Assembly: GCA_040954595.2 (NCBI GenBank)
Contig: CM082595.2
Location: 6,350,137-6,414,136, forward strand
Source: Balanoglossus misakiensis
Lineage: Eukaryota > Animalia > Hemichordata
DNA length: 64,000 nt
Direction of reading: 5' to 3'
The notes under the pieces were generated by a model. That model was not told where the DNA came from. It worked only from the letters and a program-made list of their open reading frames with translations, and did no database searches. Below are positions 4,511 through 56,856 of this stretch, piece after piece (the first letter of the stretch is position 1; each line of letters opens with the position of its first letter). The position numbers were made by a program, and so were the translations under genes.

Positions 4511-4684
<174 letters not shown>

Positions 4685-4765
4685 TGGTATCAATGCCTTT
4701 CTGTCTACACGTAGGTAAAGACAGACAGACAGATGGACAGCCAGATTAAGTCGGAAAAACAGGCA

Positions 4766-4766
4766 G

Positions 4767-4815
<49 letters not shown>

Positions 4816-4819
4816 CATG

Positions 4820-4857
<38 letters not shown>
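4766..4857. repeat. (GATA)n microsatellite
   Basis: Read directly from the sequence. Confidence 0.95.
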
Positions 4858-11432: not shown

Positions 11433-11458
11433 TATGTATGTATGTATGTATGTATGTA

Positions 11459-11555
<97 letters not shown>

Positions 11556-11640
11556 ATGTATGTATGTATGTATGTATGTATGTATGTATGTATGTATGTA
11601 TGTATGTATGTATGTATGTATGTATTTTATGTATGTATGT
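11433..11640. repeat. Compound (TATG)n/(TG)n/(TCTG)n microsatellite
   Basis: Read directly from the sequence. Confidence 0.95.
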
Positions 11641-20533: not shown

Positions 20534-20772
20534 ATTCATTCATTCATTCATACATACATACATACATACATACATACATACATACATACATACATACATA
20601 CATACATACATACATACATACATACATACATACATACATACATACATACATACTTCATTACATACATACAAAGTACATACATACATACATACATACATAC
20701 ATACATACATACATTCATACATACATACATACATACATACATACATACATACATACATACATACATACATAC
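20534..20772. repeat. (CATT)n/(CATA)n microsatellite
   Basis: Read directly from the sequence. Confidence 0.95.
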
Positions 20773-23752: not shown

Positions 23753-23852
23753 ATACATACATACATAGATACATAGATACATACATACATACCGGTACAT
23801 ACATACATACATACATACATACATACATACATACATACATACACACACACAC
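23753..23852. repeat. (CATA)n/(CA)n microsatellite just 3' of the gene A stop codon
   Basis: Read directly from the sequence. Confidence 0.9.
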
Positions 23853-42546: not shown

Positions 42547-42724
42547 TACATACATACATACATACATACATACATACATACATACATACATACATACATA
42601 CATACATACATACATACATACATACATACATACATACATACATACATACATACATACATACATACATACATACATACATACATACATACATACATACGTA
42701 CGTACGTACGTACGTACGTACATA
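42547..42724. repeat. (CATA)n then (CGTA)n microsatellite
   Basis: Read directly from the sequence. Confidence 0.95.
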
Positions 42725-45700: not shown

Positions 45701-48700
45701 AAAGCATGAACGATGTGATAGAATGCCAAGTGTAGGTGCTGTCGAGAATTTTATAGAGCTACTTGTATCAAATATTATTTGTTTTCTTTAGTTTGGTTTG
45801 TTTTAGCGGTAGGTTTATTCCTTTATTTATTTCGGTAAATCAATGGGCCAGAGTCCAATTTGCAGTCAAATAGGCCATTGATTTTGCCTGTTATAAATGG
45901 TGACTGTTGCATGTAGCGTTGACGGATGTATGATGTCATACTAACAAAATACCAGGATGTAAGGTCAGCCGTGGGTCACGAAGGTGGCCTATACGAACAA
46001 GTCTGTTTGAGCAGCTATTTTGACATGACGGATTTCGCAACATTCGTTTCGACTATTGCAGCGATGCACTGGGAGGCGCCAAGGCAATAACATATGCCAA
46101 ACTATTTTGGAACAGCATTTTTCCCGCATCGGGCGAAAACACAAAGTGTTCTCCGACACATCGATGGTCTACTGGCGTCAAAATAATCCCACCTCACGCG
46201 AGTTGCCAGATACTACGTACTATGCCATTATGTTTTTGTGTGAATGTCACACACAATGTGTTAGTCAGTGCGACCATCCAGCTGACCCCCGATTACGCAT
46301 GTTAAACCATCATATTCAGAATGTAGTATTCGATTTGATTCCTTTACAACAAATTAGGGTTTTTTAGGGGCCCTATCACAACACCTAGGCACTGAATCAG
46401 CTCTAACAGGATTTGTCTTGTCCTTGTGCAAAAAACTCATATATGTGTATATGCAGCAATGTTACATTGACTTTCTAGAGAACAAAATGATGAAACCTAA
46501 CTGGCTAAACCATTTCCCTCCTTTTTAGACACACATGACGAGAGATCAACATTATAGGTTACCACTTTGTTTCTCGCTCACTGTACCAATATAAAATGGC
46601 ATAAAATGTTAAGTAAATCGACTGACCCTCTTACAAGCTATAGATGTGCTTTAATGATACTTCAAACAATTGACGTCATATGATATTAAAATCAAGGGCA
46701 TTCTTATCTCATTTGGATCATTGCATTTGTGCTCACTTTCGTATTTGACGTATTTTTCGTCAACTTCACAATAACTTACATTGTCATTAACGCACTTGCA
46801 CTCCTACATAGACTTTAGCGCTTATACTTGAAGATTTCATTCAAAGATAAATACTGCAGGAAACAGTGATTTTTAAGTATTACGCCCACTTTAAACATTC
46901 CCATGATTGCATACGTCACAGATCATGTGAAGAATAAGAGGCCATATTTGTAAAGTATACATTACTAATGTATACTATAGTCTGCTAAACAGCTTAAACA
47001 TTGCCTGAAAATGTGATGAGAGTATGTTGGTGACCTACTGCATGACGCATGATCGAAGAATTCTAATTGCCAGATAACTGTTTTAAGCAGAAATTGTGCA
47101 ATCCACGAAAACCATTTTTTTTATTGATTTATTGATTTCTCAGAGAAATACAATGCTGTGATAGTGACCGAACAGACAGAGTTTTTAGTTGTCGTTTGCC
47201 ATTGATGCAACGATTATATAAATGTTCTAAGGTTTATTTTCAAACATTTTTCATTTCCCGAAAACTGCTGGAAAGATGTGTCGATAACTTTCAGATGAAA
47301 TGACGAATTTATTTCACTAATTTTTATGGGGTGATGTCATCAATTTAATCGGTTTAAAACCAGGAAGCTGCATTTCATGGAACTCGACACTCTTTAACTA
47401 TGACGTTAGAGTTCATGAAATTCCTACATTCACAGGAAATTAATATTTTCAGCGGGGGTGACAGATTCCAAAAAAAGGTTGAATGTAATACACAGTACAC
47501 AACCCACACAAAAAACATACACTATAACTGTTGTACTTTTACCATGACAAATCTGCCGTGAGTTTGGTCGTCACTGATGCAAGGCTGATGTAACTACTAA
47601 AATTGAGGTTGTTTCTGCATGTTATACGGCGGCTTTGGCTGAATTTTACTCGTTCGGACAAGCAGAGTGCTCCATTTGCCGATGTATACAGTGAAAAGGC
47701 GCGTGACGAGTGTGCCAGTGAGTTCGCATAGTGTGGGGTCTTTTAACATGTGAGGAAATTTCTTCAAATCGAAGAAGGTTGTAACAGAGTTTACTATGTA
47801 ATATTTTTGCCGCTGTAGACATGTCTTCACCACTCCTCAACATCCCATTCATACAAGTCTTTCAGCCAATAATTATACCCACATGAGCAAAATGTTGTAT
47901 TGGTCCAGGTCGGTCTTTATTTTCTTTGTTTCCATAATGTGGTGCCTAAGCTTCGAAGAATAATATTCAAAACTATAATTTCTCAATACAAGTCATGTGA
48001 AAATGCAAAAAAAACGGTAAGGCAGCACTTAAAATTGAGTTGTTTAATATCAACACAGAAAAGGCTTAAATAATACTTACAACTTGAATTAGACTCATCA
48101 AATTAATCTAGTAGAAAGAGTCCCAAGGCTAGCTACATATTTACACAAAATTCGTAGCAGAGATAATGTTTGTATTATCTGGCTTTGCCAAACACCCACA
48201 TGCCGTCTTCTCCCAAAAACATAAATGTACAGTTTTTATTTTCAAAAATTCCATAGTCGATTTGATGTGTTTCCGATTGCAAAACAGCAGAAAGTCACCT
48301 TTTGACGTCACACTGCGTATTATGTTCGTCATCGCAGTTTCTTCCCCGGCATCTTGTTCACTCCTTTATCGTGACCTTTATCGATATAAATTATGTAGCT
48401 TTGCTATTAGAATTGCCAATTTTCTGAAGACACCATTCCTGATTATTGACATTTCCTATCGAAATATGTGACAAGAGGAAAAGGAAGTGCGAGGCGGAAA
48501 AATTCTCATACAGTCTTCGACAAAAGGTCTCTACTGTGACTGCATGAAGTTCAAACTATGATTTATCACTACATATGGCAAACGCGTTATCTTTGTTTTT
48601 TTAGTGGCATAGCCACTCTGACTTGGGCGTGGTCAATGACTCCACAGAAACAGATCACGGAGGTCATCAGGGGATATTGTTCATATTCATCATTATGTTA

Positions 48701-51451
48701 AAGAAACATTTGAACCGGCAACTGAGTCAAGAGAAGTTACATGACTGGTAGCTGTTCACCTCAACACCAAGCTCATCTTAACCATCGAAAACGTTACAAA
48801 TATCCACTGTCAATACTGTTTATACTATTTAACTGAACCTCCCTGTAAAAAACGAGCTAAATATTGATATTATCCCAGTAATTTTTCAAGCATTTCATTT
48901 TAGTCCATTGTGACCGAATCCTGTCCATAGCTTCAGTCGCCAGACTTTTGTCACTAGATTTTTTATAACAGTTTTAATAATGTATGACTTGCAAGTGTCC
49001 TTGGAAATTCATTCTATGACTATACTAGTATAACACAGCAGCTCATGATATGTGGACATGGGCTCTTGCAGTAGTCAATGTCATTTGAGTCTGCTCAGTG
49101 TTAAGAATAACTTCAATATGAAGAAAGGCAATAGAGTTCCTGTCCTATATGACATCCATGCAGAGACTTATACATAGTGATAACTTAACACCATGCGACA
49201 CGATGTCTAGGGTCTGCAACGGAACAGAAAATCGACTGTCGTCCCTGAGGGGCTAAGGTGATCCTTGTCAGAGAAACTTCCATGAAGAATTGATGAAACA
49301 ATTTTATTTGTCAGATTAACTTCTGTAATATTCAGAATATGGTCAAAAACCTGATATAACGTTAAACGGAATGTTGTCTCTTTGAGTTGGACTTTGCTGA
49401 AAACAATGCAAGGCATTTTATAGAGTGAATACTATTGTATTTCCAACATTAGCAGTTCACAAAGAAATAATATAATATAGGAAAAAATGCACATAAGCAA
49501 TATAAATAGCCTGAAACACGTCCACGATAAAAATCAGATCGCACATTGCTGTGACGTCACTGTTTAACCGCTTATACCAAATACTCTACGTTAAAATGAA
49601 GTTGTTTGGTCTTTTATGAAAGTTTCTTGTCAACTGAAGCTGAGTCATTGCTGACGTAAAGTATAACCACATAAATAGCTGATTGAAGTCGACTTATCTT
49701 GTCTGTTTGACAATTGTCTAAGCCATACCATGAAGTTTTATTCTGGACATTATTTCAGTTTGTTAAATAAATGATCATGCTCTTGTTAAAAATAATAGCA
49801 TCGTCGAAGTAAGGCATGGCCATACATTATTCCATACAACTCTTCAAATTTTATTCGCTTGTACAGATACACACCACATCGTTATATTGCACATCTGTGG
49901 GCATGGAAGAGTTTTTATATCCGCTATGATGATGGGCTAGAGAATTGTAGACTCTGACAGTGGTGGCGCTCTTTTCTATAATTAGACTGTGAGTAGTCTG
50001 GTTATTTGCATCCAGGCAGTGACGCATTTTATGATTCATGGACATTTTCTTTCAATTTACATGTTGATTTGTTTGACACTGGAAAAGAATCGTAGAAAAT
50101 TATACTAACTTATGCATTAAAACATCCTCATAGCCTCACTTGAATGTAGTCACCTGCATTGAGCTGGGGACAGAAATGTATATGTATGTTTACTAGACAA
50201 AGTGAATCTTACCCGGCTAGTACTTACTTCAAATAGCATAAACATGGGGGAAACGCTGGCAGGATGTTTTCAGGTCTAATACGGGCACACGCACACAAAA
50301 TGTATGACATCAAAGGTAGATTACACTAGCGAAAGGTAGAACTATGTTTCTGCAAGGTCTACCTTGCAGTAGTTATCTGTCTGGGGCCATTCAGACTAGT
50401 TGAACTTAAATGGTTATAATGCACAATTCAGTAACACAAAACATAACAATGCAGAGAGCTATATTTTAACAGATATGAAAAGTGATTGAAGCGAGAGTTG
50501 GCTATCTTATTGTTCCCCTACCCTCAAGTATAAACACAATTTAATGCCTGTGGCGTTTATTGATTCATTAATTCCTACAACATGCATAATTCGTCAACCA
50601 TGGATGTGCTCAGTCCAAGAATACACCTGTGTTTACGTAGGGTACCATGCCTTCTTGTCAAATACCATGAGAAACTCTAGCCTGGCCGACGAAAATGGTT
50701 CCATATGGTCTCGGTGGGATAAATTTAGATTGTTCGGTGTTGAAAGCACGTTGTTACAATTCATTATGCCTCACTTTACCCGATCGACATTAAGAGCCAA
50801 CACGTGCAGTACCATCTATTTCATCAATGTAAGTAAATGCTACGAATATTTGTGTGATGCAGACGGAGAGAGAGGAATGTGGATATTATCCACACTGTCA
50901 TGCAAGCTAGTATGTTTTGTAGTTTCAAAAGGTCGTTATTACTTTCTGTAATGGTCCTCTGACAATTACAACACAATTCCTTGTAAAATGGAAGTATTAT
51001 TCCTTTTCGTTTGATGCATCACGTCGTTTCTGCAAACGTTTGTTTAACCAAAGGACAGGAACATTGCTCTTGAAATTGTTACATTGTATTCACCAGACGA
51101 CAGGAGGTTGTTACTTAGGTTTACTGTATATGTCTGACGTTTTGCATTGATGCACTTGGGTACGGTGGCTTTTGAACTGTCTCACAGACTACAATGCTGT
51201 AGGTCTGCACTAAAAGTGTTGTACATATTATTTGCCCGCAATTAAATTTCTGTTCTCCAAAACTTCAATATGTTGTTCACATCATGGTTATTTCCAAACC
51301 AATTTCTTTGGAATTATTGCCTATGCCTAAATGTACATGTATACTTTTTGGCCATGCTTCCTTCATATCATTTGATTGTTAATTTATAGCAATATGGCAG
51401 GTTACGTCAGTCGTCTATTTTTTGTTTATAGTTGACTGTGTTCTCCGGAGG

Positions 51452-52210
51452 ATGAATTTGATATATGGAGCTGTACTGCTGGTGGCATTGTCACATGTCG
51501 CTGTGTACACTGCACCCGTGAATGACGAACTGCAGTCCATGTCTGATAGTATGCGCATGCTCTTCGGCGAGAGAGTCGGCCAGATAAAAGCAAAGCTGCG
51601 ATTGGCGAGAGACGTCGCACCCGATGCGGACGCCCGTCTGTCGGCGGTGATTGACTCCATCAACGAAATCTCAGATTCGTTTGATGAGTTGAGCCGGGCC
51701 GGCCGAGAGGTTGGGGCTCAGGAAGAAGAACAAGAAGGCACAGAGGAACCAGAAGAAGAAGAATATGAAGGCACAGAGGAACCAGAAGAAGAAGAACATG
51801 AAGGCACAGACGAACCAGAAGAAGAAGAACATGAAGGCACAGACGAACCAGAAGAAGAAGAACATGAAGGCACAGACGAACCAGAAGAAGACGAAGGCAC
51901 GGAAGAACCAGAAGAAGACGAAGAATATGAAGGCACAACACTGGAACCAGTAGGAACACCAGAAATCCACGAGCACTACTTTGTATATCCGACTATAGAA
52001 GATTTTGGGCCCCACATACCTACACCGATTCGAATCGTAGTTATACTGAGAAAATTCTATAGCCTGCTTCACTCCCCTGCCGGCTTGTTTCTAGCAAGGG
52101 AGGGTGAACTGGAAGACCTGCTGGAGTTTCTGCTTGAGGCTGTTGAAAATGTACGCGAGACTTTCGAAGATCTCCAAGAGGACGGCATGGGAGATTTCCG
52201 CCATTGGTAG
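51452..52210 (+). CDS. Secreted, highly acidic protein (252 aa) with EGT(E/D)EPEEEE(H/Y) repeats; granin-like composition, function unknown
   Basis: Longest ORF in the window. ATG at 51452 follows the acceptor ctatttttttgtttatag (exon starts 51432). Signal peptide MNLIYGAVLLVALSHVAVYTA. RxxR sites RLAR and RAGR. AATAAA at 52461. Confidence 0.88.
   Translation: MNLIYGAVLLVALSHVAVYTAPVNDELQSMSDSMRMLFGERVGQIKAKLRLARDVAPDADARLSAVIDSINEISDSFDELSRAGREVGAQEEEQEGTEEPEEEEYEGTEEPEEEEHEGTDEPEEEEHEGTDEPEEEEHEGTDEPEEDEGTEEPEEDEEYEGTTLEPVGTPEIHEHYFVYPTIEDFGPHIPTPIRIVVILRKFYSLLHSPAGLFLAREGELEDLLEFLLEAVENVRETFEDLQEDGMGDFRHW
51734..51937 (+). repeat. Coding minisatellite, ~33-nt unit GAAGGCACAGA(G/C)GAACCAGAAGAAGAAGAA(C/T)AT, about 6 copies
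   Basis: Direct tandem repeats in frame within the acidic protein. Confidence 0.9.
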
Positions 52211-52460
52211 CTTGATGATACCACTGTATATTGATAAGTAGATAATTGGAGTTTCCAATTTCTAACCTGCCTCATTGATTTACAGATATATGACGCACAT
52301 GTGGTACAAAAACTAGGCTTCTGGTTTGACTCAATGCACGGAATGATAAAGTAGCTGTTTTTCGCTATATTTTGCTTTAAAGTGGTTTTAGTATAAGTGT
52401 ATAGAAGATAATGAATTTTAATCTTTAATGGGACAAAACAAACAAAATACAGATTATGCG

Positions 52461-52466
52461 AATAAA
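52461..52466 (+). terminator. Polyadenylation signal of the acidic protein gene
   Basis: AATAAA ~250 nt after the TAG. Confidence 0.55.
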
Positions 52467-54270
52467 TGCGTTGGTCCTTCTGGTTGTAGGGTTCCCTGCA
52501 GTCCTGATTCTTCTACGGTCTGTGATGCACACATCCCTCAACTCTAAGCTACGGTGTTCCAGCACCCTAATTAATTAAAATTACTAAAGCTCTGCACTCT
52601 CTATATAGTTCACATCCTTGTCAGGGTGTTGAACATTTACATGCAGCAGCCAGTTCAAACCCTATTGTACTCATGTATCAGAGAAATTGGTGCACTGCTC
52701 TCTAAAATTCTTAAATCGGTCTTCTGGTATAGTACTGACAATATTTAGAAGAAAAAGGGACAGGATAACTACCTGGGCTTAAAGGCAAAATAGATTATTG
52801 TTTTCGTGAACTACTGTCTGTTTACTCTTCATCAGTTTGTCTATCCATAGACTTCGTTTGTGACAGCTGAAATTGGTAGACCATGTAACTTAAAACCAAA
52901 CAAATATTCTGTCACCTAAGAATCACAGATTGTATGGGCTGTCACAACCCTCAAGTGTATGTGCTCTAATTATGCGTCGCCGTTAAAACCATATGCTGAA
53001 GAGTTTCCGCTCAGCCCATACGGTGGCCACAAATAGAAAATGGCTAACAGTGGCTGGCGGTTAGAGATAGATGAAATTTTATTATCTGCTGGGGAAAATA
53101 CATTCTGCAAAGTATTAATCAAATGGGCGGGAATGTATATGTATTCTGATTATATTGTTTGGAATCACCATTGAATACAGTTGCTGTAATTATTTTACCA
53201 TAGTATGTGTAGTTGCACACTTCTTTTTATTGCTGTAACTGTATAGTAACAGTTATTGACTATATAATGTGAAATTTCTGGATTGAACCTTATCACCAAT
53301 AAATATAGCTATGCCATTATCATTGCGCAATGGAATTCTCTGTGTCTACTGTACGCAATCACACAAATAAGACCAGAAGGGGTACACTCAATGGGAGGTG
53401 CTGAATCATGGCTAGCGATGTGGATAGTATTTGTTCTGAGGAATCTGATGAGATTGTCCACGTAATTCTTCATCACATTCGCCTTTAGCACACCACTTCC
53501 TAACAAAGTGCATTGGTCCAGGTCTTAACTATAAACAATTCAAAACATAAACGACACAGGGGGACATACCTGTATTTATGGCCATAATGGTTTATGTTTT
53601 ATTTATAGAAACCAGGGAGATTGTTTAGTTTAGGCTCGTATGTGCAAAGTAATATTCATACCTTTAGTCGGTGTTATGACAGATGTTATCACTAAAATAA
53701 TTTGTGGCCGCATGTTTGCCGTATGGTTTCGCAATCCACTACCATTAATATATGGAGACTCGAATTTCGCTTGTAAATACATTGTCCACATGGTGGTAAA
53801 ACATCTAAGCATATACAGGTGTGATCAAACACTAACGAAACCACAAAGTCACCTAAAACCATTTGTCTGTCTGTCTATCTCATTGTCTACATACACTGTA
53901 TCTATCAATCCATCTATCCATCCATCCATCCATCTGTTCATACCTACCTGCATATTCATGTGTTTTCTCCTCAATGAAAATAACACAGAAGCAGTAAAAA
54001 CGAAAGAACCACCATATACTTATGACGTTAGGTAGTGGCGCTAGGTATTTCCAGTTTATAACTGTGCCCTTTCTCATTGGAATTCAAGACATAAGGCAAG
54101 ACTCACCGAGTTAAATTTCGACGACAACTGAGAAATCTGTGTTCAACTCACTGCACTCTGGACATATTGGCAATAATTTGGTTGAGTTAATCATAGTGCA
54201 TAATATTGTTCTCACGTTCATGGCATTCTAGTACAAGGCTATGAGCATTGTCCCCATATAGATGTGTGAA

Positions 54271-54276
54271 TTTATT
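54271..54276 (-). terminator. Candidate polyadenylation signal of gene B
   Basis: AATAAA on the minus strand ~375 nt after the stop codon. Confidence 0.45.
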
Positions 54277-54648
54277 GTTCGTGGTAGTACATAAATTGCC
54301 ATGCCACATGCTTGCATTGCTTTTACAGTATAGTTTAATGTCTATAAAATTAATGTACACTTTCTTAGTAGTATTACAATTCTAATTAAAGGTAGGCCAT
54401 CATCTTACAAATGAATTCGTACCCTGGGTCGGGCGTGGTGTTCGAAAATGTGAATTGGTTCAGTTTCTTTAGTTTGAATAACACTGACAGCAGTGCACTT
54501 CATGGAAAGGGCAGTGTCTGTACTCAAGTCCGGAGGGTTAACTTCAATAAATTAGGGTGAGGGTTGGCAGCTCCTTTGTTGAAATTCAACCTGCTTCTAT
54601 TACACGGCAGTCATCAAGGATCAATCCAAAACACAACTCACAGGGCGG

Positions 54649-54677
54649 CTAGCGACCCGTTTTCCAGAAGAGATCTC
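54649..54677 (-). CDS. Gene B coding exon 3: (R)DLFWKTGR-stop, predicted mature peptide DLFWKT-amide
   Basis: Acceptor tattattttcacattgcag|GA. C+GA completes KR, then GAT CTC TTC TGG AAA ACG GGT CGC TAG. The C-terminal Gly-Arg is an amidation signal, and LFWK is shared with gene A. The spliced CDS is 291 nt, giving 96 aa. Confidence 0.82.
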
Positions 54678-56078
54678 CTGCAATGTGAAAATAATACTAA
54701 TTGTCATTAATTATGAAAGTTAAACACTCAGTGCATCACGATAGCTTTCTGACGATATCCATTTCCTTGTAGCTGATGCAGTGCCACGATTTGAAACATT
54801 CCGAAACATGCCGGCGACATATTCCGCGCCAAAATGAAATATAATCCCAGTAAGGCACCGTATGGTATTTGTATCGTTTTCTAGAAAAAACGAGTGGGAA
54901 TTGCTTTCGTAGAGTCGTGTATAGGAAATATGACACTAGTGCTGTAACATTATAGTTTACCAAATATGTTTTGCCGTATACATATTTCCACAAATGGAAT
55001 CACCCAGCATATTGCAACATTTTAAAACATTTACACCAAACACGTTCGATGGGAGTACCCCCTCCCCCCTCGGGAATTTGCTGTGGTAGGTCTACTCGCG
55101 TTACTACGTTCTCAGAGTAAGCATGCTAATTTTATTTTCAGCGTTTTGCAGGCATGCAAAGAATAAATGAACATTTATCAATTCTCTGTGAAAACCAAAA
55201 ACACCAAAACGTCAATAGCTGCCGTGACGATTCGTACCACAACATTGCAGCATTGTAGTGGTACAGGTTTGAAAAATTCCAAATTTAAGGGAAAATGGAC
55301 ATTGATTTTTTTAAGCTGAAGGGAACCTGGGCGGTAAATATTGTTAAATATAAACAATAACTTAAAGTAGTTTGAAAGAAGTATGGAGGAGACTTCATAA
55401 TTAACATATTTGACAGGTGCAACACATAATTTGTTGGCCACCTGCGCTGCACAAAGTGCTTTTGTTTCGTCGACAGTTTCAAAAGGAAATTGCTCAATGC
55501 AGTGCGGCGAATTCTGTAGTGTGCTTGAATTATAGACGAGTAAGTGTTGGTCACATGACACTTAAGTTAAACAACAGATAGCGTCTCCTTCGCAAACAAT
55601 ATAGCAAGTGTTAAGGAGAACGTTGACATTTGACATTTAATTGCACTTCATGAATTCCAAAGAATCTTGAGGAAAATTATTTCGGAAATTACATTTCCGA
55701 TTTCAGAACGACAGTACAGGTTGGCACGGGAAAATATTTAAACCTTTTTCTTTGCAGGGAGGGTGCATTATGGACATTGTTTGAGACAATTACTGGGGAA
55801 AAGTCTCAAATTAAAATGTTCAGCCGAAGGAAATAAATGCTTTTATTGGTTGCATGTCCGCACGTGTACATTTGTCGGTAGCAAAATCACATCAGTATTA
55901 ATAAGGCATGTTTACGGTCGACAACATACATCTCTATTAAAAACGTTAAACTCAAGATTCTGTAAATTTACAACATGATCAATCATGCAATGTACTAGCA
56001 TATAATGGTGTATCTAATAGCTTTACGAAGTAACAAAAATAGTGATTGTTTTGGTGATAATACAGGTTTTGAACTCAC

Positions 56079-56243
56079 GCTTGTTCAGGATTTCATCTTC
56101 ATCGTCCAAGAGTGGTGCCTCGATACCTTCAACTTCGATTGCTGTCTCCAGAGCAACCAGGTTTTCGGCCAGATCCTCTGAAAGTCCACGTATGAGCTGC
56201 ACCTCTTGCCTCAATGATGCCACGGCTGCACTGAAATCTTCTC
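56079..56243 (-). CDS. Gene B coding exon 2: acidic helical pro-region EDFSAAVASLRQEVQLIRGLSEDLAENLVALETAIEVEGIEAPLLDDEDEILNK(R)
   Basis: Acceptor cctgttatttcag|GA, phase 1 in and phase 1 out. The donor AAG C|GTGAGT splits the Arg codon of a KR site. Overlaps ORF-track entry 56023..56223. Confidence 0.88.
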
Positions 56244-56436
56244 CTGAAATAACAGGGCATATGGAGGTGCTATTGTGACCGTTTTCTCACAGAATCATGG
56301 CGTGAATCTTTCCCAAATCTCTTTCCATCATTCAAAATCTCTGAATCTAAAAGTTTCTTTTGAACTATGTTTGTGCTAGATGTTCTCACTTACCGGGGTA
56401 CTTATAAAAATTCTCATATAGATGGAGAGGAGTTTA

Positions 56437-56516
56437 GAGACAGAGAGAATGAGGGAGAGAGAGAGTGAGGAGGGAGGGGGGGGGAAGAAAGAGAGACAGT
56501 GAAAGAGAGAGAGAGA
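56437..56516. repeat. GA-rich low-complexity tract in intron 1 of gene B
   Basis: Read directly from the sequence. Confidence 0.85.
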
Positions 56517-56665
56517 TGCTAAATTGAGTCGATGACTTTAAAATGACATGATAGCAATGACAAGACAAGATGTTTTAGACAAGGAAACACAGTTTCGATG
56601 ATAGGAAACCGCATCCAATCATGGCTTTGAAAAAATTACTAGCCACAATTTCATTTACCACTTAC

Positions 56666-56762
56666 CAGACAGGACTTCTCGTTTTGTTTTTGACGTTGCA
56701 AATGTTGACGTTACACACAGTGTGCTGATAATCCAGCAAACAAGCAGTTTTGACGGCCCCAT
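56666..56762 (-). CDS. Gene B (LFWK-amide neuropeptide precursor), coding exon 1: MGPSKLLVCWIISTLCVTSTFATSKTKREVLS(G)
   Basis: ATG at 56762 lies ~89 nt downstream of TATAAA. Signal peptide is followed by KTKR. Canonical phase-1 donor G|GTAAGT. Confidence 0.85.
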
Positions 56763-56850: not shown

Positions 56851-56856
56851 TTTATA
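56851..56856 (-). promoter_or_regulatory. TATA box of gene B
   Basis: agTTATAAAgg on the minus strand, ~89 nt upstream of the ATG. An octamer ATGCAAAT is at 56961-56968. Confidence 0.65.

Follow-up and report, generated by a model that had tools for sequence, protein, structure and literature searches.

A conserved three-exon acorn-worm gene encodes a predicted DLFWKT-amide precursor with a somatostatin-like core motif

The window, by which we mean the whole 64,000-nucleotide stretch of Balanoglossus misakiensis DNA that was analysed, holds few genes and many tetranucleotide repeats. Long tracts of TCTA/GATA and TATG/CATA/TACA (4512-4857, 11433-11622, 20549-20771, 23796-23843 and 42547-42694) are the source of most of the spurious long ORFs within it. 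When the 290 most coding-like of the 967 stop-to-stop ORFs (at least 35 residues) were compared with Pfam, only six weak matches were obtained, none at the curated cut-off, and no recognisable neighbour that might anchor synteny was found among these 290 of 967 ORFs. We found a gene made up of three minus-strand coding exons (97 + 165 + 29 nt), which upon splicing of the window join into one 96-codon frame followed by TAG; translation of the joined exons yields a precursor of 96 residues that ends in KR-DLFWKT-G-R-stop. The features of the gene, in the order in which they are transcribed, are the following:

56851 to 56856, minus strand: TATAAA, candidate promoter about 90 nt 5' of the ATG, by motif match only
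56666 to 56762, minus strand: coding exon 1, 97 nt, with the ATG, the predicted signal peptide (residues 1-22), KR at 27-28 and the start of the pro-region
56244 to 56665, minus strand: intron 1, 422 nt, GT-AG, phase 1, splitting codon 33
56079 to 56243, minus strand: coding exon 2, 165 nt, with the acidic, heptad-patterned helical pro-region and then an acidic linker
54678 to 56078, minus strand: intron 2, 1401 nt, GT-AG, phase 1, splitting codon 88
54649 to 54677, minus strand: coding part of exon 3, 29 nt, with the remainder of the Arg codon, the peptide, Gly-Arg and TAG
54658 to 54675, minus strand: predicted mature hexapeptide DLFWKT, its release predicted from the KR and G-R-stop on either side
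54271 to 54276, minus strand: AATAAA, candidate polyadenylation signal about 370 nt past the stop, by motif match only

The donors of introns 1 and 2 are GTAAGT and GTGAGT, and the acceptors are TTTCAG and TTGCAG. Exon 2 (56079 to 56243, minus strand) ends with Lys and the first base of the Arg of the second KR, such that intron 2 cuts the Arg codon of the very site that immediately precedes the hexapeptide. The N-terminus of the precursor is hydrophobic and its pro-region acidic, with basic sites at KR 27-28 and KR 87-88. The hydrophobic core of the signal peptide is drawn from the hydropathy profile alone, and cleavage probably occurs after Ala22, as judged from the -3/-1 rule together with hydropathy; Ala22 is common to the protein from Ptychodera flava described below. 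The only cysteines of the window precursor, at positions 9 and 16, both lie inside the predicted signal peptide, and the mature part is cysteine-free, as had been proposed. The predicted DLFWKT amide has a calculated MH+ of 808.44, and nothing in the analysis favours D-Trp.

Two further open stretches lie close to these exons. Directly past the TAG, a further 20 codons can be read in frame (54586-54648, minus strand), three of them for Cys, up to a Gly-stop end; the first Cys comes seven codons beyond the FWK Lys, a spacing equal to that of the closing Cys of starfish ArSS2. As the P. flava frame meets a stop one codon further on and no partner Cys lies upstream, this Cys-bearing stretch is probably due to chance, although it may be a relic or a read-through form. 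On the opposite strand, 2.4 kb downstream of the neuropeptide gene and convergent with it, a single ORF of 252 codons (51452-52210, plus strand) has a signal-peptide-like hydrophobic N-terminus, an Asp/Glu content of 30%, some seven acidic repeats in tandem and one RK site, and looks like a secreted acidic protein from its composition. It gave no Pfam match at cut-off and no letter-for-letter match in the protein collection, and its residues 1-92 were without a homologue among 137 candidates.

A short terminal exon of this type is common by itself, as six candidates in the window fit the pattern of YAG, phase 1 and a G[KR]-stop end. Thus, the gene model needed support from outside the window. 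We ran phmmer with exon 2 by itself as the query (60 residues, five of them read from intron 2, and without exon 3) against 1.84 billion representative sequences, with a threshold of E<=0.001, and obtained two matches. One of these is XP_070560581.1 of P. flava (E 1.9e-6, 53%), an 'uncharacterized protein' of 101 aa with the tail KR-DIFWKT-G-RR and no cysteine at all; the other, P0003 (1919 aa), is repeat-rich and was taken as a compositional match. The window precursor and XP_070560581.1 are identical at 48 of 96 positions overall, with identities of 12/33, 28/54 and 8/9 in exons 1, 2 and 3, respectively, and their global alignment scores 219.5, where 1000 shuffles reached 43 at most.

The placement of exon 3 was similarly well determined. 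The last nine residues of the P. flava protein scored 42 at 54675 on the minus strand, the top of 127,942 six-frame positions (runner-up 27), while the best scores of the same nine-residue tail in 30 shuffled windows were 20-35. Moreover, when 430 AG acceptors in 48000-56078 were scored against the P. flava tail, 54677 reached 51 and the runner-up 17. The acceptor at about 55185, named in the original prediction as the splice that could overturn it, scored 2 compared to 51 and is excluded as an exon-3 alternative. That an orthologue should keep the tail had also been set as a condition beforehand, and P. flava does retain FWKT followed by Gly and basic residues, with Leu replaced by Ile. Because the P. 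flava orthologue matches the window gene even in exon 3, which lay outside the query, we conclude from these sequence comparisons that the three-exon gene is real and conserved in P. flava. The extent of identity in the pro-region also suggests that the window is acorn-worm DNA. The prediction of a hidden minus-strand precursor in three exons, with canonical GT-AG introns that match in phase (1 and 1), is thereby upheld by its orthologue.

The two precursors have the same architecture and FWKT-G-basic tail and are Cys-free outside the signal peptide, but the P. flava peptide has Ile in place of Leu at position 2 and one Arg more at the end. They also differ at the upstream basic site, which is KR in the window precursor and R-x-x-R in P. 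flava, with only the Arg aligned. The proposed layout of KR, acidic helix and KR therefore holds in the window, but its first KR has no dibasic counterpart in P. flava. A word-index search with exon 2 gave no candidate relative, and one with XP_070560581.1 returned only itself among 16 candidates. In scans of metagenomes, the exon-3 pattern had 0 matches and a second pattern scan had 456, none of which was confirmed; the gene is known from two species, that of the window and P. flava.

Our best explanation, which we consider fairly probable, is that the precursor is secreted and cut to linear DLFWKT-NH2, likely acting via a somatostatin- or urotensin-II-type receptor. The general features of amidated neuropeptides are present, namely a predicted signal peptide, a basic site and a C-terminal Gly with a basic residue, and are kept in the orthologue. 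By standard prohormone biology, the signal peptide would route the precursor to secretory granules, a prohormone convertase would cut after KR(87-88), a carboxypeptidase would remove the final Arg and PAM would turn the Gly into an amide, while the helical pro-region likely aids sorting or packing. Both PC2 and PAM are expressed in Saccoglossus, according to passages of PMC10508912.

With respect to the receptor, SS/ASTC-type receptors such as the acorn-worm XP_002731809 occur in hemichordates, where no ligand precursor has been found for them (PMC8851493), and receptors of the UTS2R type are listed for Saccoglossus and sea urchin in part of the supplement to PMC7536072. Since the WK motif is critical for activation of SST1-5 and UT, as stated in sections of PMC9048919, the most likely target of the peptide is a receptor in the SST/UT clade. 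By analogy with the pharmacology of this family, Trp-Lys would enter the pocket of an orphan GPCR of the UTS2R or SSTR/AstC-R type, Leu/Ile-Phe would give hydrophobic contacts, and the C-terminal amide likely takes over the protective role of the ring. In favour of such a target, urolinin, a linear peptide, is reportedly an agonist at the urotensin receptor; against it, ring-opened urotensin II analogues generally have much reduced potency. The predicted DLFWKT amide is a strong candidate ligand for acorn-worm somatostatin-/urotensin-type receptors.

FWKT corresponds to residues 7-10 of somatostatin, and the original prediction was of a somatostatin-family member that had lost its ring. SSRPs have four traits in common, as set out in portions of PMC9048919: the peptide carries WK, occurs once at the C-terminus of its precursor and has a cysteine loop, and the pro-region is interrupted by an intron of phase 0. 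In deuterostome SSRPs, an aromatic residue precedes WK. We found WK after an aromatic residue (FWK in both species) and one copy of the peptide at the C-terminus of the precursor. There is no cysteine pair around WK in either the window precursor or XP_070560581.1, and the phase-0 pro-region intron is absent in the window gene, in which both introns are phase 1. With the Cys pair and the phase-0 intron missing, the loss of a ring in a somatostatin-family member is not established. Nor do the FxP hallmark of Allatostatin-C and echinoderm SS1 peptides, or the cysteine loop that carries it, occur in the precursor.

Placement in the somatostatin family, as proposed, is likewise not established, as the precursor is without a significant profile or feature link and its layout is nearer to urotensin II/URP than to somatostatin proper. 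Pfam gave no match at E<=10 for XP_070560581.1 and no family for P0001 or exon 1, and there was no somatostatin/urotensin family member among the two phmmer matches obtained with exon 2. In an Atlas feature search, nine of the 10 rows listed were peptide-hormone precursors (DH31 at 0.86, UTS2B second at 0.85, then myosuppressin, PDH, CCK and others, all under the 0.9 bar) and the tenth was Frey; with the C-terminal half alone, neither UTS2B nor somatostatin was listed. The UTS2B row speaks for the family as no more than a lead.

Regarding gene structure, a phase-0 first intron is assigned to SS/ASTC genes and phase 1 at the equivalent place to UII/URP genes in passages of PMC7536072, and the whole mature peptide of frog and zebrafish urp2 lies in the last exon, according to part of PMC8354755; UII/URP genes are also credited with a phase-0 intron in sections of PMC9048919. 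The window gene has an N-terminal phase-1 intron and a last exon with the whole peptide, which are traits of the UII/URP branch, albeit of low specificity and compared by description. Judged by these traits, its exon layout leans nearer to vertebrate URP genes than to somatostatin genes. Phase-1 introns near the signal peptide are common in secreted proteins, and thus the phase-1 match to UII/URP is a weak one.

Three other groups of peptides were considered and rejected. Echinoderm NP18 (LFWVD) has a different tail and a cysteine-rich C-terminal region, and the published passages on starfish Arnp21-25 do not match the precursor. A corazonin-type peptide follows the signal peptide, and corazonin-type peptides that end in WKxG-amide were ruled out by this position.

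We considered that the gene might encode a genuine amidated neuropeptide from a family that is unrelated and specific to hemichordates, with FWKT due to chance or convergence and a receptor from beyond the somatostatin/urotensin clade. Convergence is possible when the shared motif is 3-4 residues long (PMC8851493), and such an origin would fit the lack of a ring, of a phase-0 intron and of significant precursor similarity; moreover, Phe and Trp are frequent in short amidated neuropeptides, and many family motifs were available for a match. In contrast, FWK(T) is improbable by chance, with expectations in a random hexapeptide of ~1e-4 to 6e-4 for FWK and ~5e-6 to 2e-5 for FWKT (under assumed residue frequencies, and before any correction for the many motifs that could have matched), the exon layout is URP-like, and orphan receptors of the clade exist in hemichordates without a known ligand. 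We therefore regard an unrelated family as unlikely, if still a serious contender.

As to the origin of the gene, we think it most likely descends from the SSRP family of genes, closer to the urotensin/URP branch, and has lost both cysteines; their absence would account for its having escaped homology searches. The gene resembles an SSRP gene and its product likely acts as one, but common descent is probable rather than proven, and we have not filed the gene as an SSRP member. The fullest form of this interpretation, in which a hemichordate member of the somatostatin/urotensin family, the first natural ring-less form, is a URP-branch linear amide that activates an acorn-worm UTS2R or SSTR-type receptor, is held tentatively, at slightly under an even chance.

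The pro-region has features of its own. Between about residues 34 and 71 there is a heptad pattern, with hydrophobic residues at 9 of 11 a/d positions in the window precursor and 11 of 11 in that of P. flava, and a single-sequence model of XP_070560581.1 consists of one helix at 33-99 (mean pLDDT 78.6, pTM 0.39). A PDB search matched 38 sequences, of which most were heptad repeats of coronavirus spike proteins aligned to residues 33-65; the three alignments inspected scored 11-17 bits per single stretch, and we set these matches aside as generic coiled-coil likeness. The pro-region is 52% identical between the window and P. flava; conservation of the heptad-patterned part encoded at 56128-56241 (minus strand) is unusually high for a spacer, and the pro-region may itself act in sorting, oligomerisation or signalling.

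If the main product were instead a helical pro-region peptide (about residues 29-86), either a coiled coil or a long helical hormone, with the hexapeptide second, then the 52% identity between the two species and the clear heptad pattern with its modelled long helix would be accounted for; for comparison, frog and fish Urp2 precursors are 22-29% identical, with nothing appreciable outside the peptide, as given in part of PMC8354755. However, the tail is conserved more strongly (8/9), P. flava lacks the upstream dibasic site and the amidation signal is on the tail alone, which leaves this idea improbable. A wrong gene model, or a precursor that escapes the predicted processing (one that is non-neuronal, uncleaved or unamidated), seems highly improbable, as the independent P. 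flava RefSeq model has the same three-part architecture and keeps the KR and the G-R. Even taken together, these two lesser alternatives have a small chance of being correct.

Full-text searches of the literature for LFWKT, IFWKT and related FWKT-amide forms returned no description of an invertebrate neuropeptide, as judged by title, and topic searches returned no hemichordate somatostatin or urotensin precursor, as judged by titles and listings. There is no FWK or WKT in passages of PMC4772807, PMC9793003 and PMC6188537, no FWK in passages of PMC13311285, and no Saccoglossus, Ptychodera or FWKTG in part of the supplement to PMC9048919. Thus, consistent with the expectation that the peptide had not been described before, we found no description of this conserved acorn-worm neuropeptide precursor in the literature searched.

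A hemichordate precursor of the somatostatin/allatostatin-C type was named in 2022 as an open gap (PMC8851493), and the gene offers a concrete candidate of six residues. If the peptide activates such a receptor, then nature can dispense with the disulfide ring, a feature described in every family member that has been compared to date. Our preferred reading, if true, would also give a reason why the ligand was overlooked, inform the timing of the split between the urotensin and somatostatin branches and provide receptor pharmacology with a minimal linear template of natural origin. If the peptide is URP-like, a split of urotensin and somatostatin before the chordates would be favoured, which is the less likely model in the sections of PMC9048919 that discuss it. 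If no such receptor is activated, the product would still be an undescribed conserved acorn-worm neuropeptide.

Finally, the gene can be set beside known systems. Protostome SSRP-like genes of annelids and molluscs have WK, three exons and a second intron of phase 1 where the mature peptide begins, as here, but differ in their four-residue cysteine loop, phase-0 first intron and extended termini, according to portions of PMC9048919. Vertebrate somatostatin-14 and cortistatin and starfish ArSS2 have FWK and a single C-terminal copy in common with the window precursor, whereas their disulfide loop of 10-15 residues, lack of an amide and one phase-0 intron have no counterpart here; the FWK of ArSS2 is followed by Gly-Arg, a further likeness. 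The URP peptide has a disulfide ring and is non-amidated, while the window peptide is linear and predicted to be amidated, and the URP gene has more exons (five in frog urp2), with a phase-0 intron included (sections of PMC9048919), compared to the two introns of the window gene. The FWK core and the single short C-terminal peptide after a basic site belong equally to vertebrate UTS2B/URP and urp2, as described in passages of PMC7536072 and PMC8354755.
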